A DNA stretch of 64,000 bases, taken from contig CBDETY010000003.1 of NCBI GenBank assembly GCA_965243025.1, forward strand, positions 6,208,001-6,272,000, read 5' to 3'. Shown piece after piece: positions 19,948 to 39,558 of the stretch. Source of the DNA: Candidatus Latescibacterota bacterium (lineage in GTDB: Bacteria > Latescibacterota > UBA2968 > UBA8231). Made by a program: the position numbers and the translations under genes. The first letter of the stretch is position 1, and each line of letters opens with the position of its first letter. The notes under the pieces are model-generated. The model saw nothing but the letters and a program-made list of their open reading frames with translations, ran no database searches and was not told the origin of the DNA.

Positions 19948-21861
19948 ATGTTCAGCTCCAGCAGGTGGCCTGCGGCGGTGCTCGCCTTCGCGGGCTCCTT
20001 TGGCGTCTACCTCGCGACCCTGTGCCCGACCGTCTACGTCGAGGGCTCGGGAGAGCTGATCGGCGCCGTGCACGCCCTGGGCACACCTCACCCGACTGGA
20101 TATCCCCTGTTCGTCCTCGCGGGGCGCCTGTTTTCGGCGCTGCTGCCGTTCTTCGACAGCGTCGCCTACCGGATCAACGTCGCCACCGCGTTCACTGCCG
20201 CCCTGGCGGTCGCGGCGCTGTCCGCTTTCCTGAGAGACCGTGGCTGTCGTCCCTGGATCAGCCTGGCAGGGGGGCTCCTTTTCGCCTTCTCCGGGACCTT
20301 CTGGAGCAACGCCGTCGTCGCCGAGGTGTACGGCGCGAGCTTGCTCGGGGCAGTGGCGATGATCTGGCTCGGGTTGCGGGCTGCCGAGGTACCGGACCCG
20401 CGAAACCTCATGCTGGCGGGCTACGCTGCCGGAATGGCACTGACGACCCATCTCAGCCAGTCCCTGATTCTGCCCGGCCTGCTGTCGGCGTGGGCGTGGC
20501 ACTGGTACCGAGGACGGCCGAACCGGCCTCCTGCGGCGAAAGCCGCAGAGCTGACGGGGAGGGCCGCAAAGGTTGCCGCAGCTGCCATCCTCGGATACAG
20601 CCTGGTTCTGTACCTGCCGCTCCGCTCCTCACTGGGCCCGGGATTTCACTGGGGCCCCCTGGATACCCCCACCCTGTTCTGGGACCACATCACCGGCGCG
20701 GAGTACCGCTTCGCCTTCTTCTCCATGCCGGCAACCGGAATCCTGCTGAACGCGGGCCGCTGGCTGGAGCATCTGTTTTCCGCCTACACCCCGGCCCTCT
20801 GCCTCGTCGCGGTCTGGGGCCTGTGGGTGAGCGCCCGCCGCGACGGAACGACCGCATGGGTTGTCGGCACCACGGTCCTGATCAACCTCGCAGTGGCTCT
20901 GAACTACCACCGCGACCCGAACGGAATCGGTGTCTTCTTCCTGCTCAGCTTTCTCGGCGCCGCGGTTTTCATCGCATATGGGCTGGAAGACCTCTGCCTT
21001 CGCCTCGGACGTGTCTTCGGCCGCGGTGGAATTCCCGCGGCCGCGGCGGTTGCGGCTGTGGCGGTCGTTATGGCGATGAATTATCGCGAGGCGGACCGAA
21101 AGGGAATTGACATCGCCCACAGGTACGGCATGGACATCCTCGCCGGGCTGCCGCAGAACGCCATCCTCATAACCGAGGGTGACGATGCAAGCTTCATCGT
21201 CGACTACCTGAGCAGGGTCGAAGGAGCCAGGCCGGACGTGACCCTGTACATGCGGGCGGGAAGGGGAACCGACATCCTTCCCGCAAGTGCGCGCAACTTG
21301 AAACCGCGTGAGAAAGCGCGGGTGCGGCGAAGGATGATCAAACGCCTGGTGGAGGAGTCTGTCGCCGGCAGACCGGTGCATTTCCTCGCGCCTCGCGATC
21401 TTCCCGCCAAAGGGTTCGATTTCGTACCGGCGGGATTGTCGTACCGGGTTCTGAAGACGGGAACGAAGCTCGCTGCGGAAATGGCATCCCCGGATACCGC
21501 TGGCGCCGCCGCGGCGGGGGACCTGGCCGATCCCTGGGCGCGTATCATTCAGGCGAACTACTGGTTCAAGAGAGGGGAAAACCTGCTGTTCCGGGAGGAA
21601 AGGGAAGAGGCGCTGGTCGCTTTCGAGCGCGCCGCCGAGATTGCCCACGACTCGCGCACGATTCGCTACAACGTCGCCCTCAGGCTGGACGACCTCGGAA
21701 AGCACGACCGCGCCTGGGTGCACATCAAGGCGGCGATTGCCATCGATCCGATGATGCCGCAGGTGTACAAGCTCGCCGACCGGATCCTGCGCCGTGCGGG
21801 GAGGCGGCAGGAGCTGCCGGCGTTGCGCCGCGAGGCGGCGCGCTGGGGCCAGCCCACATGA
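19948..21861 (+). CDS. DUF2723/TMEM260-like GT-C membrane protein with C-terminal TPR
   Basis: YLATLCPTV..SGEL..LGTPHPTGYPLF, FWSNAVVAEVY, EGDDASF, helical TPR-like tail. Confidence 0.85.
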   Translation: MFSSSRWPAAVLAFAGSFGVYLATLCPTVYVEGSGELIGAVHALGTPHPTGYPLFVLAGRLFSALLPFFDSVAYRINVATAFTAALAVAALSAFLRDRGCRPWISLAGGLLFAFSGTFWSNAVVAEVYGASLLGAVAMIWLGLRAAEVPDPRNLMLAGYAAGMALTTHLSQSLILPGLLSAWAWHWYRGRPNRPPAAKAAELTGRAAKVAAAAILGYSLVLYLPLRSSLGPGFHWGPLDTPTLFWDHITGAEYRFAFFSMPATGILLNAGRWLEHLFSAYTPALCLVAVWGLWVSARRDGTTAWVVGTTVLINLAVALNYHRDPNGIGVFFLLSFLGAAVFIAYGLEDLCLRLGRVFGRGGIPAAAAVAAVAVVMAMNYREADRKGIDIAHRYGMDILAGLPQNAILITEGDDASFIVDYLSRVEGARPDVTLYMRAGRGTDILPASARNLKPREKARVRRRMIKRLVEESVAGRPVHFLAPRDLPAKGFDFVPAGLSYRVLKTGTKLAAEMASPDTAGAAAAGDLADPWARIIQANYWFKRGENLLFREEREEALVAFERAAEIAHDSRTIRYNVALRLDDLGKHDRAWVHIKAAIAIDPMMPQVYKLADRILRRAGRRQELPALRREAARWGQPT

Positions 21862-21950
21862 CTTTTCTCCCTCCGAGAACCCCACCTCCCTTGGATCTAC
21901 ATCGTTGAGGAGTTCGATAACCTTCCCGAAGCGAAGTCAGGTGTACGGCG

Positions 21951-23150
21951 ATGGTAATTTCAGGTTTCCTTTGCTGTACATTGGCTTTCCTTTTTTCGCA
22001 AATTGCCCTCGTCGGAACGGGCAATGCAGTAGACGACGATGACCTCGGCGGCCCGGGAATTTCAGGTCGAGGATGCAGTCCGCTACTGTCAATGGTCGGG
22101 ATTGCGCTTGCCCACCAGCCGAATGGGAGAAAGCCGCCCGCGGCGTGGCCGGTCACCGATACCCTTGGGGAGATCGGCCGCCGGGTGCGGCGGGTGACTG
22201 CGACCGCGCCATAATGATGCGGATCGGCCTGGGTCTGGGTTGCGAATACGACTGCACCGGGCCGGTGGGCACGCGCCGAAACGGGGCGAGTGTCCACGGG
22301 GGCGACGACATGGCGGGCAACGTCTGGGAATGGGTTGCCGATTCGTACGACCGCGACTACTATGAACGCAGCCCCGAAGCCAACCCCGTCAACCTTTCGG
22401 AAACCGGCTTCAAAGTGGTGCGCGGGAATTCCTGGTATTACGTGGAAGCCGACCCCGATATGCGTTCGGCCAATCCCTACCGGTTCAGACCCCACCGCTG
22501 GCACCCGCTGGTTGGCGTGCGCTGCGCACGCTCGACTCAGGGGAGCCCGTTCGATCTCGCCTTCGAACTCGAGGCTGTGTCGCCGGCCGAGTACTCCCAC
22601 TGGATGCGGCGCAACCGGGCGGCCATGGCTGCCGAGGGGGACACCATCCCCGGCGCAGGAGATATGGAGCATCCCGTCGGAGAGATGGTATTCATCGCAG
22701 CCGGGGAGTTCATCCGGGGCAGGGAAAACGGCGAAAGCGACGAGAGGCCGCAACGCACGGTCTGGGTCGATGCCTGTTTCATCGACCGTTTCGAGGTGAC
22801 CGCCGGCGAGTACCGGAAATGCGTGGAGGAGGATCGGTGCACCCCCGCACATAGCGGTCCCCGTCTGTACCGGCTCGCTTTTGAAGACCACTACACGAAC
22901 TGGAACAGGGGCCAGCCCGTACGGCGTTATGGATATGTCGGGAAACGTCTGGGAATGGGTTCAGGACTGGTGGGACGGCGGTTACTATGGTAGGGGTCCA
23001 GCGGAAAACCCCCAACACCGAAGAGGGGGATGGCTGCAAGATCCTGCGCGGCGGTTCGTTCGCCGGTCAGTACGGCCGAATTCACTCGGCGACCAACCGC
23101 CCGGGATGCGATCCGAACCAAGCACTATGACTGCACCATTGGATTAACTG
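21951..23150 (+). pseudogene. Degraded tandem FGE-sulfatase (SUMF1-like) domain gene
   Basis: Conserved motifs are split across frames: signal peptide; EDAVRYCQWSGLRLPT then a shift to AEWEKAARG; DMAGNVWEW; a second domain with a deletion before ASPYGVMDMSGNVWEW; a shift to KILRGGSF. Confidence 0.75.
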
Positions 23151-23158
23151 TGCCCGGG

Positions 23159-24346
23159 ATGGAGACTCCTGATAAACAGGGGCCGCCTTTGCGGGTCCTC
23201 CACGTCATCACCAACCTGCACCTGGGCGGTGCCCAGATATCCGTAGTGGGCATATGCGAGGGCCTGCGAAAGTGTGGAATCGACGTGCAGGTTGCCTGCT
23301 CCCCGGTGGGCGCAGGCGGCAACCTCCTGCGTCGTCTCGGTGAAAGCCGAATCGCCATCCACGAGGTCCCGCAGATGACTCGGGAACCGGCGCCCTGGAA
23401 GGACCTTCGGGCTTTGCTCCGGCTGTGCCAGGTCATCCGCGACGTCCGCCCCGACGTGGTTCACACCCACCTGTCCAAGGCCGGTGTTCTGGGCCGACTG
23501 GCCGCCCGTATCGCTGGCGTGCCCCACGTCGTGCACAGCATCCGGACCTGGTCGTTCTACGCGCCCACCTCACGGCTGAAGAAGAGCATGTACGTGGCCG
23601 TGGAGTCACTGGCGAGCCGCCTCACCGACCGCTTCGTGGCGGTATCCCGGCAGCTGATCCGCGACGGCCTGGATTCCGGCCTGGGCCTGCGCGAGCGAAG
23701 TACCGTCATCCGGTCCGGGATCTGTCCGGGCCGCTTCCGGGGTGCTCTCGACGAAAGGGACCGGCGGCGGGGGGAGCTGGGCCTGGATGCCGATGCCGCC
23801 CTCGTCGGTACGGTCATGAGGCTGGAGCCGGCCAAAGCGCCCGGGGACTTCGTGCTCGCCTGTGCCCGCATCGCCGCCCAGGCACCGGCGACCCGATTCC
23901 TCCTGGTGGGAGACGGTTGCCTCCATGACGAGGTTTCGGCGGAACTGCGCAGCTGCGGGCTTGCGGACCGTGTCCAACGTCTGGGCGCCCGCGGAGACGT
24001 CGACCGCCTCCTGCCCCTGATGGACGTCTTTCTGCTGACCTCGCGGTGGGAAGGGATGCCCCGAGTGGTGATGGAGGCCGTGGCCGCCGGCGTGCCGGTC
24101 GTCTCGACCCGGGTCGGGGGGGTGCCCGAGCTCATCCAGCATGGCGTGTCCGGCCTGCTGGCACCCATTGGAGACGTCCAGTGCCTGGCCGCACACGTTT
24201 TGCGCCTGTTGGCGGATCCCGCCCTGGGACGCGATCTGGCCCGAGCTGCAAGCCAGCGGCTCGGCGAGGAGTACGACCTCGACCGGGTGGTCTTGGACCA
24301 CGTCCGGCTCTACGAACGGCTCGCCGCCCCCGGTGCGTCCCGATGA
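23159..24346 (+). CDS. GT4 family glycosyltransferase
   Basis: HVITNLHLGGAQ, HTHLSKAG, SRWEGMPRVVMEA. Confidence 0.9.
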   Translation: METPDKQGPPLRVLHVITNLHLGGAQISVVGICEGLRKCGIDVQVACSPVGAGGNLLRRLGESRIAIHEVPQMTREPAPWKDLRALLRLCQVIRDVRPDVVHTHLSKAGVLGRLAARIAGVPHVVHSIRTWSFYAPTSRLKKSMYVAVESLASRLTDRFVAVSRQLIRDGLDSGLGLRERSTVIRSGICPGRFRGALDERDRRRGELGLDADAALVGTVMRLEPAKAPGDFVLACARIAAQAPATRFLLVGDGCLHDEVSAELRSCGLADRVQRLGARGDVDRLLPLMDVFLLTSRWEGMPRVVMEAVAAGVPVVSTRVGGVPELIQHGVSGLLAPIGDVQCLAAHVLRLLADPALGRDLARAASQRLGEEYDLDRVVLDHVRLYERLAAPGASR

Positions 24347-25176
24347 CGGCACAGCGTCTTGTAGCCGTTACCGGCGGCCTGGGTTTCATCGGCTCGGCGG
24401 TGATGCGTGAGCTCGAGGCGCGCGGGTACCGCGCCTTCCCCATCGACCGGGCAGCGGGAGGAGACCTGCTGCGGGATGATCTGCCGGCGCTTCTGGGGGA
24501 TTGCTGCGCGGTGATTCACCTGGCGGGGATTCTGGGCACGGCGGAGCTTTTCCAGTCCGTCGACGAGGCGATCGATACCAACATCAAGGGAACGGTCCGC
24601 GTCCTCGAAGCTTGCCAGGCCAAGGGCTTTGCCTACGTCGGGATCACCCTGCCCGAGCATTGGGACAACGTCTATTCGGCGACGAAAAAGTGCGCCAGAC
24701 AACTCGCCTCTGCCTGGCACCGTCACTGCGGCGTGCGCGTGAGCCACGTGCGCGCTTTCAATGTCTTCGGACCGGGTCAGAAGACCACGGGGGTCCAGAA
24801 GATCATACCGACCTTTGCCGAATGCGCCTGGCGCGGCCAGCCTTTGCCCATCTGGGGGGACGGCACGCAACGGGTGGATCTAGTCCACGTCGAAGACGTA
24901 GCCCGCATGATGGCCGACGCCCTCCGCTTCGGCGACAACGAGCTCTTCGACGCGGCTACCGGCCAGCTGTTCACCGTCAACGAGGTGGCGCGGATGGTGC
25001 TGGAAATCACCGGCTCCCGTTCTCCTCTCGAGTACTTGCCGATGCGAAAAGGGGAGCACGCCGTCCGGGAGGTGGAAAACACCGGCGCCGGATGGGACCT
25101 GCTGCCGTGGCGGCCCCGCTTCGATTTCGAGCGCCTGCGCGGCACGGTGGAGTCCTACCGACCCACCGGCCGATAG
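24343..25176 (+). CDS. NAD-dependent nucleotide-sugar epimerase/dehydratase
   Basis: VTGGLGFIG, HLAG, YSATK, RAFNVFGPGQ, WGDGTQRVDLVHVED. Confidence 0.85.
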   Translation: MTAQRLVAVTGGLGFIGSAVMRELEARGYRAFPIDRAAGGDLLRDDLPALLGDCCAVIHLAGILGTAELFQSVDEAIDTNIKGTVRVLEACQAKGFAYVGITLPEHWDNVYSATKKCARQLASAWHRHCGVRVSHVRAFNVFGPGQKTTGVQKIIPTFAECAWRGQPLPIWGDGTQRVDLVHVEDVARMMADALRFGDNELFDAATGQLFTVNEVARMVLEITGSRSPLEYLPMRKGEHAVREVENTGAGWDLLPWRPRFDFERLRGTVESYRPTGR

Positions 25177-25185
25177 GAACCGTTC

Positions 25186-25860
25186 GTGGCCGCAGCGAGT
25201 TCGGATGGCCTTGGAGCCTGGGCGGGTCAGAAGATCCTGGTCGCCGTCGCCCATCCCGACGATGAGGCGATCGCGTGCGGGGGTACAATCGCCAGGGCGG
25301 CGGCCCTCGGGTGCCAGTGCCGGGTCCTGTTGCCGTTTCGCCGTTGCGATCCCCGCGGCCGGAGAAACTGGCAGGCCCTGATCGGCGCTTTCGAGCGCTC
25401 CTGCGATACCCTGGGCGCGGTGCCCGTCCTCCCCGCGCACCTGATTGACGAGCGCCGGGCCGAGACCGACCTCGCCGAAGTGCACGACCTGATTGTCCCC
25501 GAGGTCGAGTGGGCCGACCGGGTCCTCACTCACTGGTGGGGAGACGCCAACCAGGTCCATCGCGGGCTCTCCCGCGCCGTGGAAGTGGCCACCCGGCCCT
25601 TCCGGAGGCGCCGGGACGTCCTGCTTTTCGAAGTGGCCACCTCGACAGACCAGGTGTTCTCGAATGCTTTCACGCCGAATGCGTTCGTTCTGCTGAAGGC
25701 CGCCCATGTCGAGGCCAAGTGCGCGGCCATGGAACAGTACAGCACCGAGTTCGAGCCGGGGCGCCTGCCCGACGACCTGCGCCTCAAGGCCCGGGTCCGG
25801 GGAGCCGAGGCCGGGACCGAGTATGCCGAAGCGTTCGCTATGGCCCGGACGTTCCTGTGA
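25186..25860 (+). CDS. PIG-L/LmbE family N-deacetylase
   Basis: AHPDDEAIACGG, RGAEAGTEYAEAF. Confidence 0.85.
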   Translation: MAAASSDGLGAWAGQKILVAVAHPDDEAIACGGTIARAAALGCQCRVLLPFRRCDPRGRRNWQALIGAFERSCDTLGAVPVLPAHLIDERRAETDLAEVHDLIVPEVEWADRVLTHWWGDANQVHRGLSRAVEVATRPFRRRRDVLLFEVATSTDQVFSNAFTPNAFVLLKAAHVEAKCAAMEQYSTEFEPGRLPDDLRLKARVRGAEAGTEYAEAFAMARTFL

Positions 25861-26498
25861 CGGTTCCCGGGCCGGGACGATGGGCCCTGTTCTGGAAGCG
25901 CGCCCTCGATCTCCTCATCGCCGTTCCCCTGCTGCTGCTGGCCGCGCCTCTCCTGCTCCTGGTGTCGGTACCCGTGTGGTTGCTCGACCGCGGCCCCGTC
26001 CTGTTCCGCCAGCAGCGGGAGGGCCTTCAAGGCCGTCGCTTCACCCTGTGGAAGCTGCGCACCATGTACCGGCGAGCCGACGATATCCTCGAATCCTGCC
26101 TTGGACGTCACCCGGAGGCGCAAGCCGAGTGGCAGGCTTACTGCCGACTGCGCGATGACCCTCGAGTTTTGCCGCTCGTCGGCCGCCTCGCCCGCCGCTT
26201 CAGCATCGACGAGCTGCCGCAGCTCTGGAATGTCATCGAGGGCAGCATGAGCCTGGTCGGTCCGCGGCCGGTCGCCGTGGACCACCTCCCCTACCTGCGG
26301 CCCCGGTATCGCCGCCTCCGCGCTCGCGTGAAGCCGGGCCTTACCGGCCTGTGGCAGGTCTCGGGCCGAAGCGACCTGGAGCTGGCGAGAATGGAAGGGA
26401 TGGACGCTTTGTACGTGCGGCGCTTCTCCTTCCGGCTCGACCTGTGGATCCTGTGGCGGACGGTTCCGGCGGTTCTGTCAGGCCGCGGCGCCTATTGA
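25857..26498 (+). CDS. Priming polyprenol-phosphate phosphoglycosyltransferase (Bac_transf, WbaP/PglC-like)
   Basis: [43 protein letters not shown]. Confidence 0.9.
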
Positions 26499-26811
26499 AT
26501 CCGGGTCTTCGCAAGGCCGGTGCGGCCGGACGGTGGGAGCTGGCGCGCCGTCAGCGGAACGAGGAGACGTAACCGAACCCGGGCGGACGATGGAGGAGCG
26601 TCCGCAGGATGCTGCGGGAACAGAAGTACGGTGATTCATCTCGAGAATCCATACCGGGTCTACCACCCTTTGTCTGTGACCGTCCAAATGGACCACGCAT
26701 GATCGCCCTGCCATTCCGCGATTCCACCCGCCGCCATTCCGGCGTTCAACACGGTTCTCATCCTCTTGCAAGGAATCGGGTAGCCGTCCAGACAGGACGC
26801 GGGGAAACGGG

Positions 26812-28287
26812 ATGACCCCGGCCCGGGCGCAGCATTGGTTCGAACCCGGCGACAGCCGGTTGATCGGGGCGGCCTGCGCGCTCATCTGCGCCGTCGTTGT
26901 GGGGCCGGTATTCTGGTTTGCCCATTTAGCCCCGCTGTTCGCCACGGCCCTGCTGACGGCGGGTGTCATGCTGTTCTCGGTCAGGCGCGCGCTGGTCGTC
27001 CTTCTCGTGGCGACCGCGGTGACCCCGGGGCCGGTGCTGGAGTTTCTGCGCATTCCCCTCGGGTTCAAGCCGACCGAGGTGCTGTTGATGGCCACCCTGC
27101 TGTTTCTGGCGATCGACGTCGTATGGGCGCGCCGCCTGCGGGTGGCGACCACCGGCGTCGACGGTCTCGTCGCCGCCTTCCTTGCCGTCGCCCTGTTTTC
27201 CGGCCTGCTCGGGGCGTACTACGGCAACGAGAACGGGACCATCCTCCGCAATCTCCGCTACCCGCTCTACTACGTCGCCTTCTTCGCCGCCACCCAGGCG
27301 TTCTCCCCCCGGGACGGGGCGCGCCTGATCGCACCGATCCTCATGCTCGTCGGTCCGGTGGTGGGAATGACCTACATCTTCGAGTTCCTCGGCGCCATCG
27401 ACCTGTCGACCGGGAAACGCTTCTTCCGCGTCATGGGGCCGCAGGGAGTGGTATTGCCGGTGGCCATGCTGGTAATCGCAAACCTCCTGATTCACGACCC
27501 GCGGCGTTTCGGGCGCCTGCTGCCGGCCCTGGCGTTTTTGCCCACCGGGCTGGCGTTCGTTCTGACCGTGGGCCGGGGAATGTGGGTCGCCTTCGCGGTC
27601 GGCTTGGCAGCGACTTTGTGGATCAGTCACCGCAGCCGGCCCCGCGGGGCCCGCCAGGCCTGGGGGGCCGCAGTTCCCGCCGCGGCGGTGGTGGCCGTTC
27701 TCCTGGCATCGGTGCTGGTTTTCCAGCGCTTCACCGGGGCCGCGGTCAGCGCCCACGCCCTCGAACGCTCGCGCACCTTCGTCGACGTCAGCCGCGACGT
27801 GCAGGTGTTGGGGCGCCTCATGGGCTATTCCGAGGTGCTGCAAGCGATTGCCGAGCGCCCGGTTTTCGGAAGCGGCCAGGGCAGGATTCTCAAGCTTTTC
27901 GCCTTCGATCCGGAAGAGGGCCGCTTCGAGACCTGGGAGGCCTGGACCGTGGACAGCCTGTATTTGACCCTTTGGCTGAAGATGGGTCTGCCCGGACTGA
28001 TCCTCTTTGCGCTGTTGTATCTGAAGCTGTTGCGCATTTCATGGGGGCAGAGTCACGCTGCGAGCCCTCCGGACCGGCGCGCCTTCGCGGCAGGGGCCTT
28101 CAGCGTTATGGTGGCGATGGGGGTTCTGGGCATCTCCGACGGCTCGATGATCAACGGCCGCTTCGCGGTCCTGTTCGCGATTCTGTTCGCCGCGGTGGCG
28201 CGCGGCGCAACGGACCCTTCCCCCGCAACCGATCAGCGCATTGCATCTTCTCGAGGGGTGGTCCCGGCGAAGCGGAGAGTTCCTTGA
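26812..28287 (+). CDS. O-antigen ligase/Wzy-like membrane protein
   Basis: About 12 TM segments; LTVGRGMWVAF, RPVFGSGQG, DSLYLTLWLKMGLPG. Confidence 0.75.
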   Translation: MTPARAQHWFEPGDSRLIGAACALICAVVVGPVFWFAHLAPLFATALLTAGVMLFSVRRALVVLLVATAVTPGPVLEFLRIPLGFKPTEVLLMATLLFLAIDVVWARRLRVATTGVDGLVAAFLAVALFSGLLGAYYGNENGTILRNLRYPLYYVAFFAATQAFSPRDGARLIAPILMLVGPVVGMTYIFEFLGAIDLSTGKRFFRVMGPQGVVLPVAMLVIANLLIHDPRRFGRLLPALAFLPTGLAFVLTVGRGMWVAFAVGLAATLWISHRSRPRGARQAWGAAVPAAAVVAVLLASVLVFQRFTGAAVSAHALERSRTFVDVSRDVQVLGRLMGYSEVLQAIAERPVFGSGQGRILKLFAFDPEEGRFETWEAWTVDSLYLTLWLKMGLPGLILFALLYLKLLRISWGQSHAASPPDRRAFAAGAFSVMVAMGVLGISDGSMINGRFAVLFAILFAAVARGATDPSPATDQRIASSRGVVPAKRRVP

Positions 28288-28342
28288 ATCGCCGGGGTGA
28301 TGGAGACTACCGGGGGTTCCCCGGCCCGCACCGCTCAACACA

Positions 28343-29893: not shown

Positions 29894-30140
29894 GGGTGGA
29901 GGCAAATCGCCGGGAAACGCCGGGAACGTGCCAAGGGGGAGGAGGGGAACCCCGGTTTATTTCGGAGTCCACGTATGGCGCCAGGGCCAGCGGCTGCCAT
30001 GGGGTCGCGGACCGCGCCGCTGGTTCCGGGGGGCGGCGGGGTACACACCAGACAACGGTACTGGTGCGACAACAGTAGGGAAAACCGCAATTGAGCAACC
30101 TGTATCAATCGATAAAAAACAACAGGTTGCGTTAGTTTCA

Positions 30141-30217
30141 TGGTGGGCGATACCGGAATCGAACCAGTGACCTCCTGCATGTCAAGCAGGCACTCTAACC
30201 AGCTGAGCTAATCGCCC
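30141..30217 (-). tRNA. tRNA-Val(GAC)
   Basis: GGGCGATTAGCTCAGCTGGTTAGAG..CCTGC-TT-GAC-AT-GCAGG..GTTCGATTCC..TCGCCCACCA. Confidence 0.95.
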
Positions 30218-30225
30218 CTGGTTTC

Positions 30226-30254
30226 AAGCTAGAGCTGCCCGCAGGCATGGTCAA
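30226..30254 (-). promoter_or_regulatory. Putative promoter of tRNA-Val(GAC)
   Basis: TTGACC-N17-TAGCTT ending 8 nt upstream of the tRNA. Confidence 0.65.
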
Positions 30255-30463
30255 GAGCGGGCGGCCCGGATGCATGGAAGCTCCAGGAGGCCGGGACGTC
30301 TCCGTGGCGTTCCTCCTCAATCCCAAAGAGCGCGATAAGACGGCTCATCAGATCCTCCGCGCGCAGGTCATACAGAAGAAGAACGGGTCGGTCCGGAAGG
30401 ATCCGGGAATCCCGTGATCAGATGGCCGCGTATGTGGTGCGCTTCCCTGCACTCCGGGGGGAT

Positions 30464-31612: not shown

Positions 31613-31786
31613 GAATCCTCGAACAGTTGTCGGGGTGAAGCCGGGGGGAGAACCGCTGGGGGAATGAGCCAAAGATAAAAGCGTGGTCCCGGTGAGAAAA
31701 GGCACCGGCGCGGAACCGGTTTCTTGACCGCCGTCAGGCTGGGGTTAGTTTGAGAAAAAATCCCTCGAAAGTAGAAGGTGATTCCG

Positions 31787-32743
31787 ATGCCGGAAGGCTC
31801 CGCACAGCTGCTGACCTACCGGGGTGAGGCCATCGATTCCGCCCTCCTCGGCGAGCTGCATGACGCCTCGAGCGCCCTCGGCGACAGGGAGGCCCTGCGC
31901 AGGGGCATGGCGCGGGACGGCTACCTCTACCTTCCGGGGTTCCTCGACCGGGAGGAGGTCATGGCGGCGAGGATGTCGGTGCTGTCCAGGCTCTCCGCCA
32001 AGGGCCTGATCGACCACTCCCATCCGCTGGAGGAAGGAGTGCTGAAGCCGGGTATCGAGACGAGCTTCTCCCCGGATCTCGCCAGGGACAATCCCGAGCT
32101 GGACGCCGTCGTGTACAGCGGGCGGATGATCGAGTTCTACGAACTCTTTCTCGGCGGCCCGGTGCGTCATTTCGACTATACCTGGTTCCGCGCCAAGAGT
32201 CCGAACGGCGCCAACGCCACCCAGCCACACTGCGACATCGTGTTCATGGGGCGCGGCACCCGGAACCTCTACACCTCCTGGACTCCGCTGCAGGACATCC
32301 CGCACGGCATGGGGGGCCTGATGATTCTCGAGGGCTCGCACCTGCAGAAGGAGATCCTCGACGACTACGCCCGCACGGACGTCGATGCCTACTGCGATGA
32401 AGGGGAGGCGGCCGCCATCGTCGCCCGGGCGCGCGCCGAGAACCGCCAGCTTACCGCCGAGGAGCGGGGGGGAATCCGCTGGGATTCCCGGGGCCATTTC
32501 GCCGACGCCCTGGGGCTGCGGCAACAGCTTGGCGGCCGCTGGCTGACCGCGGAATTCGGCATGGGGGACCTTCTCGTCTTCAGCATGTTCACGATGCACG
32601 CCAGCACCGACAACCACACCCGCCGCATCCGCCTTTCCTCCGACACCCGCTACCAGCTCGCCAGCGAGCCGGTGGACGAGCGCTGGATCGGCGACGATCC
32701 GCCTGCCCACGGGATCCATTCCAAGCGCGGCCTGATCTGCTGA
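31787..32743 (+). CDS. Phytanoyl-CoA dioxygenase (PhyH) family Fe/2OG dioxygenase
   Basis: RDGYLYL, HxD (PHCD), EGSH, GDLLVF..MHAS, RLSSDTRYQ. Confidence 0.85.
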   Translation: MPEGSAQLLTYRGEAIDSALLGELHDASSALGDREALRRGMARDGYLYLPGFLDREEVMAARMSVLSRLSAKGLIDHSHPLEEGVLKPGIETSFSPDLARDNPELDAVVYSGRMIEFYELFLGGPVRHFDYTWFRAKSPNGANATQPHCDIVFMGRGTRNLYTSWTPLQDIPHGMGGLMILEGSHLQKEILDDYARTDVDAYCDEGEAAAIVARARAENRQLTAEERGGIRWDSRGHFADALGLRQQLGGRWLTAEFGMGDLLVFSMFTMHASTDNHTRRIRLSSDTRYQLASEPVDERWIGDDPPAHGIHSKRGLIC

Positions 32744-32914
32744 GGAGCGGTTTCGCGGGGCTGCCGGCGGCGACCACCGCCGACCACCGCCGACCCTGGC
32801 GGGCTCAGCAATCGCCGGCGAGAGGGGCGCGGCACCTGCCCGGGACCACCATCCTTCCCGGGTCGGGAGGGGATGCCCCCGGTTTCAAACTCCACCCGGA
32901 GTCGGGTGGCTGGT

Positions 32915-33502
32915 TCAGTTGAGGGAAGGGTCTTCGGGGATGAACGACATCGGCGCGTACTTGCCGCCCAGGGCGTGCAGGGCCTGTTGCCAGACGCTCT
33001 CCGGCTCTTCGGAAAAGACCAGGTCGATGTTCGCGTCGCTGAGAATCCAGGCGCCCATGGCGATCTCGTTCTCGAGCTGGCCCGGCGCCCAGTCGGCGTA
33101 CCCGAGGTAGAACCGCAGCAGGGGGCTGTCGCTGTCGAGCTCCGGCATGCAGCCGCGCAGGATATCGAGATCCCCCCCTGCGTAGAGGCCGTCGCAGATG
33201 TGGGTTGCGCCGTCTCCGGCCCTGCGCAGGCGGTGCAGGAAGATGAGGGAGTGCGGCTCCTCAGGCCCCCCCTGGTAGAACATCCCGTCCGGTTTGCCGC
33301 CCGATTCGAGTCCGTTGGCGAGGGTTCGCAGCTCCTCTGCGGGGTACATCCGGACCCGCTCTCCGAGCGGACGGTTGACGATGACGCCGAGGGTCTGGTC
33401 GGGCCGGTGCTGGAGGATCAGCACTACCGCGCGGCTGAACCTCGGGTCCTCCAGTCCGAGTGAAGCGATGAGAAAGGTTCCTGCTTTCAGGGGTGCGGGC
33501 AT
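32915..33502 (-). CDS. YqgE/AlgH (DUF179) family protein
   Basis: DPRFSRAVVL, GVIVNRP, YQGGP, GYADWAPGQLENEI, DPSLN. Confidence 0.9.
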   Translation of the reverse strand: MPAPLKAGTFLIASLGLEDPRFSRAVVLILQHRPDQTLGVIVNRPLGERVRMYPAEELRTLANGLESGGKPDGMFYQGGPEEPHSLIFLHRLRRAGDGATHICDGLYAGGDLDILRGCMPELDSDSPLLRFYLGYADWAPGQLENEIAMGAWILSDANIDLVFSEEPESVWQQALHALGGKYAPMSFIPEDPSLN

Positions 33503-33640
33503 GGGGATCAGCGTCGGTGAGGAGTGCCCAAATGATAGGGAGCCGAGGCGGCGGTGCAAACGGCCCGGCCGGTTATCCCGCGCGCCGAAACTCCGGTTGC
33601 GAAACGGGGGCGGCGGGTTCACGCGGAGCCTGGGAAGGAC

Positions 33641-34792
33641 TCAGTAGCGCAGGAACTCCTCTCTCACCTGCGCGAAGGGCCGCCGCTCCCGCTCCCAGGC
33701 TGCGAGCAGATCGGCGACAGGGGTTCCGGCGTCGAGCTCGAGGCGCACCCTGTCGCTGCCTGCGAGCTTGTCGAAGTTGTGGATGCCCCGGGCGGGGAGG
33801 TGCCAGTCGAAGCGGTCGCGGAACATTCTTTTCGCCGTGGCCAGCAGGTGGAAGGCGGCCGTCACCGGGCGCAGGCAGGGGGAGAGGGCGTGCAGCTGCA
33901 CGCCCCCGCAACGCTCTCCGGCGTGCTTGCCGAACGACGGCGTGAAGAACACCGGCCGCCATCGCGCCCCCGGAATCGCCAGCTCGTTCATCGCATCCGC
34001 CAGGGAGAAGCCGTCGACGAACGGCGCCCCGATGAGCTCGAACGGCCGCGTGGTTCCCCGTCCTTCCGAGAGGTTGGTCCCCTCGAAAAAGCAGGTGCCC
34101 GGGTACAGGGACGCGGTCTGCGGAGTCGGCATGTTCGGGGAGGGGGCAACCCACGGCAGCCCGGTATCCTCCCAGGACATCGACCGCTTCCATCCGCTCA
34201 GCTCCACGACCTGCAGCTCGGCGCCGATGCCGTGGACCTCGTTGAAGAGGGTGGCGATCTCCCCGATCGTCAGCCCGTAGCGGACCGGGACGGGGTAGCG
34301 GCCGACGAAGGAGGAGAACGCGGGATCGAGCAGGTTCCCCTCGAGCACCTCGCCGCCGACCGGATTGGGGCGGTCGAGGAGGAGGAACGGCACCCCTCGC
34401 CCGGCGCAGGCTTTCATGGCCGCGCTCATGGTGTACAGGTAGGTGTAGAAGCGCGCACCGACGTCCTGCATGTCGAACAGCAGCACATCGATGCCGTCGA
34501 GCATGGAGTCCCGCAAGGCGCGGGTGGGGCCGTAGAGGCTGATGGCAGGCACACCGGTGCGGCGGTCGACGTCGTCCGCAACGGCGACCCCGTCCTCGGC
34601 GTCGCCGCGGATCCCGTGCTCGGGACCGAACAGGGCCGCCAGCTCTGCGGCCGGCTCGGCGTGCAGGCGGTCCGCGGTCGAGCGCAGCAGGGAGTCGACC
34701 CCGGTGGGGTTGGTGATCAGGCCGACTCGCCGCCCGGCGATCAGCCCGAGGGAGTCGTCGAAAAGACGCTCGTTTCCGAGCCTCACCGCCAT
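33641..34792 (-). CDS. Exo-beta-N-acetylmuramidase NamZ (DUF1343) family
   Basis: VGLITNPTG, FGPEHG, DMQDVGARFYTY, LDRPNP, PSPNMP, SEGRGT. Confidence 0.9.
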   Translation of the reverse strand: MAVRLGNERLFDDSLGLIAGRRVGLITNPTGVDSLLRSTADRLHAEPAAELAALFGPEHGIRGDAEDGVAVADDVDRRTGVPAISLYGPTRALRDSMLDGIDVLLFDMQDVGARFYTYLYTMSAAMKACAGRGVPFLLLDRPNPVGGEVLEGNLLDPAFSSFVGRYPVPVRYGLTIGEIATLFNEVHGIGAELQVVELSGWKRSMSWEDTGLPWVAPSPNMPTPQTASLYPGTCFFEGTNLSEGRGTTRPFELIGAPFVDGFSLADAMNELAIPGARWRPVFFTPSFGKHAGERCGGVQLHALSPCLRPVTAAFHLLATAKRMFRDRFDWHLPARGIHNFDKLAGSDRVRLELDAGTPVADLLAAWERERRPFAQVREEFLRY

Positions 34793-34796
34793 CGCT

Positions 34797-35753
34797 TCAA
34801 CTGTCCCGGGCGTCGGCCCGCTGCACCCGGCGGACGACAAAGGCGATCCCCCCCAGAAGGCTGGCGACGACACCGGCCGCGTACCCGAGAAGGGACATCG
34901 CGAACGCCCGGCTTTCCGGAGCGCCGACGGAGCCGAACAGCTCGACGAAGATGTTCTCCCGCACCCCCAGGCCCCCGATGGAGATGGGCAGGGCTGCGAT
35001 GACCGCGGCGACAGGCTGGAAGGCGACGAAGTAGATCAACCCGGCGTGCAGCCCGGCCGCCAGCCCAGCCGACCAGTACACGAGAACGCGCGCGAACTGG
35101 ACGCCGAGGGAAACGGCCCAGACTCCGAGAAGAAGCCGGCCCTTGTTGCGGTAAACCGCCATGCTCCGCCGCAGGCTGGCCGCCTTGCGGCCGGCGCGTT
35201 CGGGAAGGATGCGGGTTGCCAGGCCCTCGAGCAGACGCCCGGCGCGCCCGCTCAGTCCCATCGCCATCAGCAGGAGAAGGACGGCCCAGACCGGCACGAG
35301 AACCGAAATCACGCCGGGGACCCGGACCTCGGCGACGGCGAAACAGGCGATCAACGCCAGCGTGCAGGTGGAGAGCAGGCCGACGAAGCGGTCCATGAAG
35401 GTCGCCGCCGCGGCGCCGCTGGTGCGCCCGGTGAGCCGGCGTACGTCGTAGATGCGCAGCGCGTCTCCGCCGATGTTGCCGAGCAGGACGTTGTTGAAGA
35501 ACACCCCGGTCAGGTAGAAGACCGTCGCCTGGCGGAAACCTATGGGCAGCCGGTGGGCGCGCAGCAGCAGGTACCACTGGCAGGCTCCCAGCCCGTTGCT
35601 GACCACGAAGAAGGCGACGGCAAGCAGGAACAGCGACGGCACCGTCGCGGCGAAGGCGGCCCCCAGCCCCTCGAGATCGGTCTGGAGGGCGAGGTAGTAG
35701 AGCAGGCCGGCGCTGACCGCCAGCTTGAGAAGGGTGTTGAGCGCCGTCTTCAA
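34797..35753 (-). CDS. Lysylphosphatidylglycerol-synthase TM / flippase-like protein (UPF0104)
   Basis: TTG start overlapping the GT2 stop; FFNNVLLGNIGGD, MDRFVG, LPISIGGLGVRE. Confidence 0.8.
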   Translation of the reverse strand: MKTALNTLLKLAVSAGLLYYLALQTDLEGLGAAFAATVPSLFLLAVAFFVVSNGLGACQWYLLLRAHRLPIGFRQATVFYLTGVFFNNVLLGNIGGDALRIYDVRRLTGRTSGAAAATFMDRFVGLLSTCTLALIACFAVAEVRVPGVISVLVPVWAVLLLLMAMGLSGRAGRLLEGLATRILPERAGRKAASLRRSMAVYRNKGRLLLGVWAVSLGVQFARVLVYWSAGLAAGLHAGLIYFVAFQPVAAVIAALPISIGGLGVRENIFVELFGSVGAPESRAFAMSLLGYAAGVVASLLGGIAFVVRRVQRADARDS

Positions 35754-36790
35754 GAGCCGGGTTCCGCCATGAAGTCGCGGCTCCGGCGCCGGCCGCGCAG
35801 GAAGTACTGCACGAGAATGCTGCCGCCGTACACCCCCCTGCGGTCGGCGTCGGTCCCGGCGGTCGCCAGCCCGCGGCTGCGGCGGCGGCGCTCGAGCAGG
35901 TTGAGGGGATGGGTGAAGCACCAGAGCAGCGCCGCCAGCGGGGCCGCGGCGGCGCGCAGGCGGCCGCGCAGGAGGTAGTTGAGGGCCGCCGCCAGCTCGA
36001 GCAGTACGCGCGCCGGCAGCAGCCAGGTCAGGGAGCGGCAGGGGAGGTTCTTGAACAGCATGACGAGGTTGTTGCGGTGGTTGAGGTAGCTCTTTCGGAA
36101 GCTCGCCGGCGGCAGCGACCACCCGGCGTGGTGGTGGATCACCGAGGAGGGCACGGCGACGAGCCGGTAACCGGCGAGCCGCAGCCGCCAGCACAGGTCG
36201 ATCTCCTCGAAGTGCATGAAGAAATCGAGGTCGAGCAGCCCGACCCGGCGCACCGCTTCGGTGCGCACCAGCATCGCCGACCCGCAGGTCCAGAAAAGGT
36301 TCGCGGGCAGATCGTACTGCCCGTCGTCGGTTTCGACTTCGTCGAGCAGCCGTCCCCGGCAGAAGGTGTACCCCAGGCGGTCGATGTAGCCGCCGGCGCC
36401 GCCGCTGTAATCGAACGAGCCCGCATCCGCGGCGGACAGCAGCTTGGGCTGGCATGCGGCGATCGCTTCGTCGGCCTCCGCGGCCGCGATCAGCGGCTCG
36501 AGCCAGTTGGCCGTCACCTTCGTGTCGTCGTTGAGCAGCACCGAGTACTCGGTCCCGGCCGCTTCGAGGCCGCGGTTGCAGGAGTAGCTGAAACCGCGGT
36601 TGCCCTCGTTGCTGATCACCTCGATACCCGGAAAGCGAGCCCGCGCCTCCTGCAGACTTGGAGCGCCGCCCCCGTCGTCGACAACGATCACCCTGAGGGG
36701 CCGGGCGCTGTGGGCGAACAGGGACTGCAGGCAGTCGGCGAGCACCTCGGCCCGGTAGTGGGGGATTACGATGGTGACCGGTTCGCGCAC
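35750..36790 (-). CDS. GT2 family glycosyltransferase
   Basis: TIVIPHY, VVDDG, GFSYSCNRG, LLNDD, FFMHFEEIDLCWR. Confidence 0.9.
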   Translation of the reverse strand: MREPVTIVIPHYRAEVLADCLQSLFAHSARPLRVIVVDDGGGAPSLQEARARFPGIEVISNEGNRGFSYSCNRGLEAAGTEYSVLLNDDTKVTANWLEPLIAAAEADEAIAACQPKLLSAADAGSFDYSGGAGGYIDRLGYTFCRGRLLDEVETDDGQYDLPANLFWTCGSAMLVRTEAVRRVGLLDLDFFMHFEEIDLCWRLRLAGYRLVAVPSSVIHHHAGWSLPPASFRKSYLNHRNNLVMLFKNLPCRSLTWLLPARVLLELAAALNYLLRGRLRAAAAPLAALLWCFTHPLNLLERRRRSRGLATAGTDADRRGVYGGSILVQYFLRGRRRSRDFMAEPGS

Positions 36791-36810
36791 ACCCGGGCCT
36801 GCCGCGCCGG

Positions 36811-39558
36811 TTAGTCGTCGCCGGCGTCGCCGGAGGAGATCTTCAGGGCGTTGTGCAGGGTTTCGAGATCCCGGTCCGAGGCGTCGGTGGCGCCGTATTC
36901 ATCCCGGTACTCGCCGATCAGCCGGATCGCGTCCTCGACGCGGCCCCCGGCCTGCATCGTCGCCGCCAGCTCGCGCCAAGCCTCGTAGCGCTCCGGTTCC
37001 AGGGAGATGGCGACCCGGTAGGCGCGCTCGGCCCGCTCGAGGTCCCGGTAGGTATCCAGCAGGATGCCGGCCAGCGCCAGGGCGTTCTCGTAGGTCGCCG
37101 TCGGATGCTCCCCCACGCTTTCGGAGAGGTGATCCACCGCTTCTTCCAGGTACCTGGCCGCGATAGCCATGCCGCCGATCTCGCGCTGGAGCTCGCTGGC
37201 GGTGTAGTAGGACTCCCAGTTGAGCGGGATGTTCTCGAGAGCCCATTCGGTCAGCTCGGTCAGCTCGTCGTACCGCTGCTGTTCCTGGTACAGGGAAGCC
37301 AGGGTTATGTAGCAGGCGCGGTAGTTCCCCAGCAGCCTGGTGGTGTTGAGGTCCTTGTAGATGCTGCGGTCGCCGACCCCGCGGAAGCGGTAGACCTGCT
37401 TCAGGTTGCGGGCTAGGGCGTCGAGGTCGGTGTCGCGCCCTTTTTCGGGAACGAGCTTGAGGGTCATCCCCACCATGCTCAGGTACGGGTCCAGTCCCAA
37501 CCGGTTGCTCTGGGCGACGGTGATGGCGAAGTAGATGGGCCGCTTCCACTCGTTCCACCTGATGATCCCGATCGTCATGATGTCCTGAACCCGCAGAACG
37601 TCGTTCTGGGGCAGGGTGGATACCTTGGCGTCGAGGCCGAGGTCGGAGAATTCGCGCGGGGTCTTCGGTTCGGGCCACACCCGCTTGTACATGTCGACCA
37701 GCTGGGTGTCGGTGAGAACCGAGTCGATGTAGGTGTCGTCGATGCGGATGTCGACCCTGGGCTCGCGGTCGCGCAGCTGCTTGATGTACCACCCGGTGTT
37801 GAGGAGGCTCAGGTTGACGACGCGGATGTCCCGGCGGATCCCCTCGACCTCCTGGAGGAACCACAGCGGGAAGGTGTCGTTGTCGCCGTTGGTGAACAGG
37901 AGCGCGTCCTCCTCGCAGCTGTTGAGCAGGTTGTAGGCGTAGTCGTAGGCGATGTAGTCGCCGGTGCGGTCCTGGACGTGGTAGCTGCTGGCGCCGGTGC
38001 CGAGCGGAAGCAGCAGGCCGCAGCAGGCGAAACCGGCAAGAACCGGCCTGGCCACACGCCAGCGCTGCCGCGCGAGCTCGACGATGCCGGTCCAGCCGAG
38101 CCCCATCCAGATAGCGAACGCGAAGAACATGCCGCCGAAGACGTAGTGGCGTTCGCGCGGCTGCGGGTCCTGCATGTTGAGGTAGAAGGAGAGCCCGAAC
38201 CCCATGATCAGGAATATCGCCAGCAGCGCCGCGAAGCGGCGCCAGTCGCGCAGCCCGTGCCATACCAGCCCCCAGGCCCCGAGGGCGTACGGGATGAGCG
38301 ACACCGAGATGGTGTGGGCGGCGTTCTCGGTGGCCAGGCGGAAAACGAGGTCGCGGTTGAGCAGGGGAAGCGGGAACTGCTGGAAGAAGTACTTGAACTG
38401 CTGATGCCACAACTGGTAAGCGCGCGAAGCCCGCGGCTCGAGCATCATCAGGAGCATGCTGTCGGTCCCGTACTGCTCGCGGTTGAGGAATTTCTTGAAG
38501 GCGACCCAGGTCTCGGGGTCGTTCTCGTCGATCACCGGGTTGAGCCCGGAACGGATGTACAGGGTCGCGTAGGTCGAGTAGCCGATCGCGAACAGCACCG
38601 CGCTGCCGACGAGAAGCCCCAGGGCGCGGCGGTCGTGCTGATAGAGATGGCGGAGCAGGCCGATGGCGACGACGGCGAGGACGGCGTTGAAGAGCATCCC
38701 CTCGGAAATCAGGGCGCGCCCGGCGAAGGCCGCGGCGCCGGCCCCGAGGAGCCACAGCACCGTCGGGCGCAGCTCATCTTCGGTGATCCAGACGTACGAC
38801 AGGAAGGCGATCAGGCCGGCGGCGGCCAGCAATCCGAGCAAAGCCGCCGAACCCGGCCCGTCGGCGAGCACGGCGAGGATGAAGAACCCCTCCAGCCCGG
38901 CGCCCACCATGACCGCAATCAGGCGGCGCAGGCCGCGGTCGGCGAACCAGGCGAGGATCAGCAGGCCGGGAATGATCAGCAGGCAGAGCAGGTGCAGCCC
39001 GCCGCCGAGTCCGAACAGGTAGGCGACGAGAAACAGCCAGCGGTCGTTCATGGATCCGTGCCCGGTCCCTTCCCAGTACAGGACCAGCCAGAACCCCAGG
39101 GCGACGAACAGTATCGAGTAGCCGTAGACCTCGGCCTCGGTGGCGTTGAACCAGAAGGTGTAGGAGACCGCCAGGGTCAGCGAGGCCAGGGCGGACCCGA
39201 GGGTCACCGAGAGGTCGCGGTCGTCGCCGAATACCCGCAGCGGTTCCCCGCCCATGGCGCGGCGCGCTATCGCCGCGGTGCCGAGGTAGGTGCACCATAC
39301 GGCCAGGGCGGAGGAGAGGGCCGACATAAGCACCACGCGCCAGGCGACCTCCATGACCGGGATCATGGAGAACAGCCGTCCGAGCAGCACGTACAGCGGC
39401 GAGCCCGGCGGATGCGGAACGCTGAGGGTGTATGAGGTGGCGATGAACTCGCCGGTGTCCCAGAAGGAGACCGACGGCGCCATGGTCAGCAGGTACAGAC
39501 CGAAGGAAATCAGGAAAACAGCCACACCGGCACAGCGGTGCATCACTGCTGGATTCAT
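36811..39558 (-). CDS. DUF2723/TMEM260-like GT-C membrane protein with C-terminal TPR
   Basis: MAPSVSFWDTGEFI..VPHPPGSPLY, FWFNATEAEVY, LNREQYG, PRERHY, FTNGDNDTFPLW..RVVNLSLLNT. Confidence 0.9.
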   Translation of the reverse strand: MNPAVMHRCAGVAVFLISFGLYLLTMAPSVSFWDTGEFIATSYTLSVPHPPGSPLYVLLGRLFSMIPVMEVAWRVVLMSALSSALAVWCTYLGTAAIARRAMGGEPLRVFGDDRDLSVTLGSALASLTLAVSYTFWFNATEAEVYGYSILFVALGFWLVLYWEGTGHGSMNDRWLFLVAYLFGLGGGLHLLCLLIIPGLLILAWFADRGLRRLIAVMVGAGLEGFFILAVLADGPGSAALLGLLAAAGLIAFLSYVWITEDELRPTVLWLLGAGAAAFAGRALISEGMLFNAVLAVVAIGLLRHLYQHDRRALGLLVGSAVLFAIGYSTYATLYIRSGLNPVIDENDPETWVAFKKFLNREQYGTDSMLLMMLEPRASRAYQLWHQQFKYFFQQFPLPLLNRDLVFRLATENAAHTISVSLIPYALGAWGLVWHGLRDWRRFAALLAIFLIMGFGLSFYLNMQDPQPRERHYVFGGMFFAFAIWMGLGWTGIVELARQRWRVARPVLAGFACCGLLLPLGTGASSYHVQDRTGDYIAYDYAYNLLNSCEEDALLFTNGDNDTFPLWFLQEVEGIRRDIRVVNLSLLNTGWYIKQLRDREPRVDIRIDDTYIDSVLTDTQLVDMYKRVWPEPKTPREFSDLGLDAKVSTLPQNDVLRVQDIMTIGIIRWNEWKRPIYFAITVAQSNRLGLDPYLSMVGMTLKLVPEKGRDTDLDALARNLKQVYRFRGVGDRSIYKDLNTTRLLGNYRACYITLASLYQEQQRYDELTELTEWALENIPLNWESYYTASELQREIGGMAIAARYLEEAVDHLSESVGEHPTATYENALALAGILLDTYRDLERAERAYRVAISLEPERYEAWRELAATMQAGGRVEDAIRLIGEYRDEYGATDASDRDLETLHNALKISSGDAGDD

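Follow-up and report, generated by a model that had tools for sequence, protein, structure and literature searches.

A bacterial TMEM260 homologue and its conserved glycosyltransferase partner: a candidate glycosylation module in Candidatus Latescibacterota

Human TMEM260 (CAZy family GT117; PDB 9RQL, 9RQM and 9RQN) is a protein O-mannosyltransferase of the endoplasmic reticulum that modifies IPT domains. It belongs to the same Pfam family, PF11028 (DUF2723), as two proteins encoded in the stretch of DNA analyzed here, a window of 64,000 nucleotides from a Candidatus Latescibacterota bacterium (GenBank assembly GCA_965243025.1, contig CBDETY010000003.1, positions 6,208,001 to 6,272,000 of the forward strand). 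We refer to these two proteins as copy A and copy B, and give positions within the window. A 2026 preprint describes human TMEM260 as a GT-C (glycosyltransferase C) core to which are added a variable transmembrane module, a Rossmann-like domain on the luminal side and a TPR domain that binds an extended peptide (10.64898/2026.03.17.711096). In the same preprint, D52, H67, Y267 and R355 touch the mannose and R264 the phosphate, the catalytic base is D441, located in the Rossmann-like domain, and the mutants D52A, H67A, R264A, Y267A and D441A are all inactive (10.64898/2026.03.17.711096). Of DUF2723, a paper published on TMEM260 in 2023 mentions merely 'distant homologs in bacteria'. An earlier sequence-only reading of the window had taken the span from A to B (19948-39558) as one protein O-glycosylation system. 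We find that this span is made of four independent units, namely the B module, A, a glycan island and housekeeping cell-wall genes. Judging from comparisons across genomes, B with a glycosyltransferase of family 2 (GT2) and, in some loci, a PF03706 membrane protein is the only conserved functional module, and the remainder is juxtaposition.

Three-component periplasmic systems (GtrA/GtrB/Gtr-GT-C; CsbB/GtcA/YfhO) are composed of a cytoplasmic GT2, a flippase and an outward-acting GT-C enzyme, and the targets known for such systems are O-antigen and teichoic acids rather than proteins. The locus described here resembles them because its GT2, candidate flippase and GT-C genes are contiguous and partly overlapping. 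Unlike theirs, its GT2 is not recognizably of the GtrB/Dpm1 type and its candidate flippase belongs to PF03706/TIGR00374 rather than to GtrA. In actinobacteria, proteins are O-mannosylated by the GT-C enzyme Pmt (GT39), fed with lipid-linked mannose made by a GT2, the polyprenol-phosphate-mannose synthase Ppm1. Pmt differs from A and B in belonging to another GT-C family and in having no TPR tail, and no PMT-family chain occurs among the PDB matches of the A and B searches. The O-oligosaccharyltransferases of the PglL/PilO type and the WaaL ligases share the Wzy_C domain with one gene of the span (26812-28287), which is part of the inserted island. Finally, a review of general O-glycosylation in Bacteroidota reports that the glycans begin with a hexose (mannose) and a deoxyhexose on Ser/Thr of exported proteins. 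It proposes that the core is added by one enzyme and the outer glycan by a ligase, with the core hexose and deoxyhexose made elsewhere in the genome, and states that the O-glycan transferase, the core flippase and the ligase 'remain undiscovered' (PMC12871550).

Copy A (19948-21861, plus strand, 637 residues) and copy B (36811-39558, minus strand, 915 residues) match PF11028 with E-values of 5e-28 and 2.7e-49, respectively, corresponding to 98.5 and 167.8 bits against a cut-off of 24.2, so that the two DUF2723 paralogs reported earlier are confirmed. The genome (6.8 Mb, 96% complete) holds no other PF11028 match, and both proteins match the solved human TMEM260 chain. According to profile comparison, B is a true TMEM260 homologue. 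We compared a family profile of 50 B-type sequences (A2) to the PDB and recovered the human TMEM260 chains 9RQL/9RQM/9RQN in two stretches (E 4.2e-31). TMEM260 is the sole membrane glycosyltransferase matched, and the remaining matches are weak helical-repeat proteins. As in the human enzyme, the parts are ordered as GT-C core, luminal region with a Gly-Asp base and putative helical-repeat tail. B shows approximately 11-13 hydrophobic segments by hydropathy and is around 200 residues longer than human TMEM260, with insertions. Unlike the human enzyme, it is a bacterial inner-membrane protein, and its donor carrier is expected to be of the undecaprenyl rather than the dolichyl type. All listed relatives of B carry the precomputed Pfam family PF28495.

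In the A2 alignment to the human chain, D34 of B, which lies within FWDTGE, corresponds to D52, H49 to H67, and G558-D559, within GDNDT, to G440-D441. R360 and Y363 (REQYG) share columns with human R264 and Y267, as derived from the A-human pairwise alignment together with a 140-row MAFFT alignment, and the equivalent of R355 is placed tentatively at R470 by eye and by profile comparison. All 50 sequences of A2 share W33, D34, H49, R360, Y363 and D559. The Trp-Asp pair is also kept in all 18 genes of a sample not chosen by motif, which was collected by PF11028 from the phylum holding Nibribacter (25 genomes, regions for 20, centre gene in 18). The survey was extended to the relatives of A among 1.84 billion cluster representatives (12,612 at E<=1e-3, 6,047 at E<=1e-10 and 477 at E<=1e-30), by aligning 138 of the best 150 after leaving out 12 of fewer than 550 or more than 1000 residues. 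The D52 column holds Asp in 122 and Gly in 16 of these 138 representatives, the H67 column holds His in all of them, and the D441 column holds Asp in 119. With the equivalents of D52, H67, R264, Y267 and D441 retained, B would keep the pocket that takes a monophosphate-linked hexose as donor and, in addition, the base that activates the acceptor.

The genes of the module are tightly packed. Only 20 nucleotides separate the stop of B from the start of the GT2 gene on the same minus strand (35750-36790, 346 residues, PF00535 E 2.6e-20), whose stop in turn overlaps the TTG start, refined to position 35753, of the PF03706 gene (34797-35753, minus strand), and the ATG of NamZ lies 4 nucleotides further on. 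To identify relatives of B we used sequence patterns that included FWDTGEFI. This search returned 205 matches, 182 of which were confirmed, and the best 80 loci were examined; the closest match, at 90% protein identity, is among Latescibacterota metagenome-assembled genomes. Since the motif was itself a search pattern, FWDTGE conservation in these loci was rejected as evidence. A GT2 orthologue lies directly downstream of B on the same strand in 39 of the 80 loci (tblastn), among them every close relative for which enough DNA is available and the majority of the Marinimicrobia, where B identity is about 30%. Overall, the pair recurs in three phyla. In Marinimicrobia, it stands alone between recG/DUF1844 and the poly(A) polymerase gene, and its two genes overlap at stop and start. 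In the 18 motif-independent loci the next gene downstream is a GT2 in 5, an LpxA-like gene in 3, a CE4 deacetylase in 2, a GT9 gene in 1 and another gene in 7. The PF03706 gene follows the GT2 gene in only 12 of the 80 loci, corresponding to close relatives and one further locus (L027). The linkage of GT2 to GT-C genes known from Gtr-type systems is therefore seen in both samples. The other neighbors vary. The scan of these neighbors covered 102 of 138 open reading frames (ORFs) in 18 of 24 loci, leaving out the near-duplicates L020, L026, L033, L037, L046 and L082.

Two further arrangements were observed around DUF2723 genes. A CE4 polysaccharide deacetylase of about 203-223 residues directly follows the DUF2723 gene in seven loci (L042, L052, L055, L072, L079, L140 and L141), and loci paired in this way include Bacteroidales, Cryomorphaceae and Paludibacteraceae. 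In five loci of the Bacteroidota-phylum sample (L147, L148, L149, L151 and L153) the order is signal peptidase I (S26), a radical-SAM HemN-like gene, DUF2723 and GT2. The proximity of a signal peptidase to a candidate protein glycosyltransferase could be either meaningful or accidental.

The GT2 partner is well conserved. Fifteen sequences from three phyla align with a mean column identity of 51% and numerous invariant motifs (alignment A1), and the corresponding profile detects a full-length orthologue (at least 314 bits, with the next best at 191 or less) in 47 of 61 genomes of the Bacteroidota phylum, mostly apart from DUF2723. The protein has no strong transmembrane helix and only amphipathic C-terminal segments. 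Its Atlas neighbors are generic GT2 clusters, mostly from Bacteroidota, and the single-sequence phmmer search retrieved neither GtrB nor DPMS chains at E<=1e-3. It thus appears to form a distinct conserved GT2 subfamily that is not recognizably of the GtrB/Dpm1 type. We slightly favor its being the maker of polyprenol-phosphate hexose, because it is the only linked GT2 and the pocket of B seems to be of the monophosphate type; the other possibility is that it extends a lipid-linked glycan by a second sugar. The PF03706 protein is a polytopic membrane protein of 318 residues that matches LPG_synthase_TM (E 3e-33) and, above the NCBIfam cut-off, the 'flippase-like' family TIGR00374 (E 8.7e-17).

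PF11028 is present in all 125 genomes of the phylum to which our genome belongs (52 of 52 high-quality genomes; 38 of 38 genera), in 300 of 301 sampled Bacteroidota genomes, and in 1 of 14 control genomes, that one being Bacteroides thetaiotaomicron. The match between this distribution and Bacteroidota O-glycosylation is suggestive, not proof: the link from that process to the window is drawn solely from the distribution of PF11028 and of GT2, and the host here is a member of Latescibacterota, not of Bacteroidota. A further difference from human TMEM260 concerns the substrate. The PF01833 (IPT/TIG) search gave no match in the genome, hence any sequon must differ from that of the human enzyme. 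A protein acceptor for B is plausible but unproven.

Copy A represents a divergent branch of the family. It shares 39% identity with B over the 153 N-terminal residues (BLASTP), and the two proteins are homologous from end to end (hhalign Prob 100, E 1.7e-55, 613 columns), with insertions in B. As noted in the sequence-only reading, FWDTGE of B is replaced by VEGSGE at the same aligned place in A. Genome searches, with full-length matches at E 2.6e-64 or better, detected A-type orthologues in 49 of the 55 genomes that represent the family. Of 25 A-type loci, 24 retain VEG[STA]GE, the exception (L105) being cut at its N-terminus. A matches chain 9RQL over residues 10-435 by phmmer (E 1.2e-23), and profile A3 matches it with E 1.1e-44. 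In the phmmer alignment, H48 corresponds to H67, Y253 to Y267 and G411-D412 to G440-D441, while G33 stands at the position of D52, one residue after E32. G250 takes the place of R264, with R254 following the Tyr, and human R355 falls within a stretch of three residues missing from A. The 16 representatives with Gly in the D52 column are the nearest kin of A, and four of them also lack the preceding Glu. The loop variant of the R264 region, with Gly or Ala followed by a later Arg, is common in Asp-bearing members as well. Residues 524-621 of A clearly match TPRs, both the consensus and those of OGT (E 9e-15).

The neighborhood of A is also different. Eight loci of other genera in which A was recovered whole were analyzed, scanning 30 of their 68 ORFs. 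A YfhO-like GT-C gene (787-872 residues) lies directly upstream of A in all eight, a SGNH/AlgX-like gene precedes it in six, and a PTS EIIA-2 gene follows A in five. The complete order SGNH/AlgX-like, YfhO-like GT-C, A-type DUF2723 and PTS EIIA-2 is conserved in other genera of the family (L159-L174). In our genome the SGNH-YfhO pair is retained without A (G000:C3:1537785-1541468; L187 6785-10468), which has relocated to a site 4.7 Mb distant. A is therefore best described as a separate conserved subclade, probably functional, whose donor site looks altered and whose partner differs.

The genes adjacent to A are of recent arrival. Two genomes of the same genus (L083 and L175) keep the order uvrA-CBM9-B-GT2-PF03706-NamZ-AlgH-PhyH-Dac ... 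A-epimerase-PRT-recA at 78-95% protein identity, and at this site blastn and tblastn detect in them none of the FGE, GT4, epimerase, PIG-L, phosphoglycosyl transferase (PGT), Wzy_C and 516-residue genes. DNA homology to both genomes ends at position 21859, the end of A, and returns at approximately 30125-30304 with a piece of 141-175 bp that sits right after A in both relatives. This gap identifies about 8.2 kb of the window (21900-30125) as an insertion. Moreover, no homologue of the island genes is found at E<=1e-6 within about 9 kb of A in 16 loci of other genera, except for three weak epimerase matches. From these comparisons, the GT4/PGT/Wzy_C island is an unrelated and recently inserted surface-polysaccharide locus. 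The statement that each DUF2723 copy lies beside glycan genes is thus physically correct, yet the genes next to A do not form a meaningful cluster with it. The gap between A and the carboxypeptidase gene carries different cargo in the three genomes of the genus (window 21862-30464; L083 11905-17595; L175 12502-15474): the glycan island here, a DDE transposase with a Na/H-exchanger fragment in one sister and around 3 kb of other DNA in the second. It looks like an insertion hotspot.

Within the island, Pfam identifies a GT4 (23030-24346), an epimerase/dehydratase (24343-25176), a PIG-L protein (25186-25860), a small Bac_transf PGT (25857-26498, with its start refined to 25857) and the Wzy_C protein (26812-28287, E 3.8e-17); two epimerases are detected in the whole span. 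The GT4, priming PGT, Wzy_C, GT2 and flippase-like genes named in the earlier reading are hence each matched by Pfam. The data are compatible with the Wzy_C protein being a polymerase, a ligase or an O-oligosaccharyltransferase alike. The polytopic protein of 516 residues encoded at 28343-29893 (plus strand), previously called a third GT-C, has about 10 hydrophobic segments and no Pfam family even at E<=1. It matches two NCBIfam families far below threshold, AftB (2.3e-13, with 49 bits where the cut-off is 1050) and the uncharacterized glycosyltransferase family LA_3751/2, while 28 of its 30 Atlas neighbor clusters are nameless and the other two carry PMT_2 on 13% of their members. Eight relatives in other phyla all lack island-like neighbors. 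The GT-C assignment thus receives weak support, and the fold may be GT-C-like. The ORF at 22073-22993 (plus strand), at the left edge of the island, begins with the C-terminal half of one FGE-sulfatase domain and ends with an N-terminal part of a second, and its GC3 is below that of its neighbors. It is probably a rearranged or decayed gene.

Since B is a TMEM260 homologue encoded beside a conserved GT2 gene and a flippase-like gene, periplasm-facing glycosylation from a lipid-linked sugar is a sound reading of the module, which seems to be a bacterial variant of a known enzyme family following a known logic. The dependence on a polyprenol-phosphate sugar that had been proposed earlier stays tentative at its GT2 step, as this GT2 is not recognizably of the GtrB/Dpm1 type. 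We give roughly even chances to the more specific proposal that the B-GT2-PF03706 module performs such a transfer most likely to Ser/Thr of proteins. In this scheme, GT2 would work at the cytoplasmic face, where it loads or completes the sugar on its polyprenol-phosphate carrier, and the PF03706 protein, or another flippase, would carry the lipid-linked sugar across the membrane. B would then move the hexose from its monophosphate-linked carrier to an acceptor hydroxyl held by its periplasmic domains, most likely, as in human TMEM260, on Ser/Thr of extended, newly exported polypeptides. The analysis shows the homology, the retained catalytic and donor-binding residues, the gene linkage and the near-universal occurrence in two phyla, whereas we infer the donor sugar, the roles of GT2 and of the flippase, and above all the protein acceptor.

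Several observations weigh against this proposal. Residues 758-900 of B, where the peptide-binding tail would lie, give only weak TPR-type or helical-repeat matches. The GT2 profile aligns to DPMS (3.6e-12), GtrB (7.6e-8) and ArnC (1e-6) only over the nucleotide-binding N-terminal half and less strongly than to other GT2 enzymes, whereas it aligns to polypeptide GalNAc-transferases along its whole length (positions 6-222, E 9e-14); the NCBIfam matches of GT2 to MftF, EpsD and a rhamnosyltransferase are all far below their cut-offs. In 14 of the 61 Bacteroidota-phylum genomes DUF2723 occurs without a GT2 orthologue, thus the pair is not obligatory. The varied neighbors of B relatives are often glycan or lipid enzymes, such as CE4 deacetylase, LpxA-like and GT9 proteins elsewhere and NamZ and Dac here. 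The flippase role of the PF03706 protein is predicted here and unproven among its relatives. The pairing of GT2 with PF03706 recalls that of HpnI and HpnL, but this analogy gives no support, as the function of HpnL, a PF03706 relative, is called unclear in a 2026 preprint. Finally, as the sequence-only reading had assumed, the bacterial homologues appear uncharacterized: our literature search on TMEM260, GT117 and bacterial DUF2723 found no paper characterizing a bacterial member.

B could instead use its lipid-linked sugar on a non-protein molecule of the envelope, such as lipopolysaccharide core or lipid A, peptidoglycan or another glycopolymer, as ArnT and YfhO-type GT-C enzymes do. We consider this rather unlikely, although a good deal in the neighborhoods speaks for it: a CE4 deacetylase directly downstream in 5 of 9 Bacteroidota-labelled loci and in 2 of the 18 motif-independent ones, LpxA-like (3 of 18) and GT9 (1 of 18) genes in the same position, NamZ and a D-Ala-D-Ala carboxypeptidase downstream of B in the window, and the YfhO-like (8 of 8) and AlgX-like SGNH (6 of 8) genes that precede A-type copies elsewhere. 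However, GT2 is the only neighbor kept across phyla, B retains the luminal catalytic Asp and a putative helical-repeat tail, which are the peptide-holding parts in TMEM260, and near-universality in Bacteroidota fits a phylum-wide process without a known enzyme. Less probable still is that B acts as an en-bloc O-oligosaccharyltransferase. In this case GT2 would extend a lipid-linked hexose in the cytoplasm by another sugar, perhaps a deoxyhexose, and B would pass the short core glycan on to protein, in line with the model of the review for the Bacteroidota core. GT2 is indeed closer to transferases acting on sugar or peptide acceptors than to polyprenol-phosphate synthases, and it matches the rhamnosyltransferase family TIGR01556 over residues 30-223 (E 7.8e-11). 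The Bacteroidota review also describes a hexose and deoxyhexose core and an undiscovered oligosaccharyltransferase (PMC12871550). Nonetheless, the TIGR01556 match is far below the NCBIfam cut-off, there is no sign at this locus of a diphosphate-linked donor, and the residues with which TMEM260 holds one mannose and one phosphate are retained in B.

The remaining explanation, and the one proposed by the sequence-only reading, joins A, B, the PGT/GT4/Wzy_C island and the 516-residue protein in one protein O-glycosylation system whose targets would be the exported Ig-like proteins encoded at 9274 and 52246. In its favor, all parts lie within 20 kb, and a two-step scheme of core and ligase has been proposed for Bacteroidota in the review (PMC12871550), for which the Wzy_C gene could supply a ligase-like protein. 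Comparative genomics largely refutes it, and we regard it as very improbable. The island is missing at this site in both same-genus genomes and around A in the 16 other loci, and A is without the Asp equivalent to D52. Chance would seldom place two copies within about 18 kb of each other, yet their proximity is genus-specific: A and B lie 11-20 kb apart in this genus alone (G000, G077 and G078), 1.2-2.9 Mb or more apart in six other genomes (G096, G100, G102, G103, G107 and G124), and on separate contigs in two more (G076 and G079). The proteins at 9274 and 52246 lie beyond housekeeping genes (rho/prfA/recA or uvrA) and show no link to the span other than export. Neither contains an IPT-type sequon, the PF01833 search of the genome gave no match, and the single D-S-V that each has as a D-(S/T)-hydrophobic motif is at chance level. 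Altogether, what the sequence-only reading observed is real in part, and its interpretation is partly supported.

If B does O-glycosylate exported proteins, it would supply the initiating enzyme that the Bacteroidota review lists as undiscovered (PMC12871550), and the Bacteroidota-type pathway would extend to several uncultured phyla. More tentatively, with chances clearly below even, B and the conserved GT2 may represent the missing core machinery of general protein O-glycosylation, in which B would add the first hexose to Ser/Thr and GT2 would synthesize or elongate the lipid-linked donor. This machinery would be shared across the FCB group, including Latescibacterota and Marinimicrobia, and the A-type copies would form another branch with a changed mechanism. 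Structural and mutagenesis data on the human enzyme single out the bacterial residues of interest, namely the Asp of FWDxGE and that of GDNDT. As for the window, most of the apparent 20-kb 'system' reflects adjacency produced by insertion and rearrangement.

The window itself is a high-GC chromosome segment rich in housekeeping genes, including dnaG, rho, prfA, prmC, recA, a double-length uvrA, selB and a sigma factor. Between the island and the B module lie a D-Ala-D-Ala carboxypeptidase (Dac, 30464-31705, minus strand), PhyH (31778-32743, plus strand), an AlgH-like gene (32915-33622, minus strand) and NamZ (33641-34792, minus strand), all identified by Pfam, as was the FGE-sulfatase ORF at the island edge. 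This block (30464-34792) is syntenic with B in 7-10 of the 80 loci, close relatives only. Similarly, the gene for a CBM9-like protein directly upstream of B (39660-40313, minus strand, PF06452 E 3.5e-7) is found there in 13 of the 80 loci, all close relatives. Terminator and promoter scans returned 10 terminator-like sites, compared to 7.5 +/- 3.1 expected, and one promoter-like site, compared to 1.0 expected; at these near-expected counts they provide no information on operon ends.

Outside the span, the proteins encoded at 52246-54171 (plus strand) and at G000:C3:4597190-4604062 (L188 1190-8062) end in FlgD-Ig and CHU_C/Por_Secre_tail domains, which are cargo signals of type IX secretion and indicate that the organism probably has this secretion system. 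One such pair of tailed proteins adjoins a second YfhO-like gene. The RecA ORF (16439-17809, plus strand) is listed from a TTG, and since its RecA domain begins at residue 67 the true start is probably further downstream. The SelB-type elongation factor encoded at 58362-60320 (plus strand) suggests that the genome probably encodes selenoproteins. The uvrA-like ORF at 40351-46452 (minus strand, 2033 residues) has doubled UvrA interaction, DNA-binding and ABC domains. It resembles a tandem UvrA-UvrA fusion and is retained in 12 related loci at 67-92% identity.

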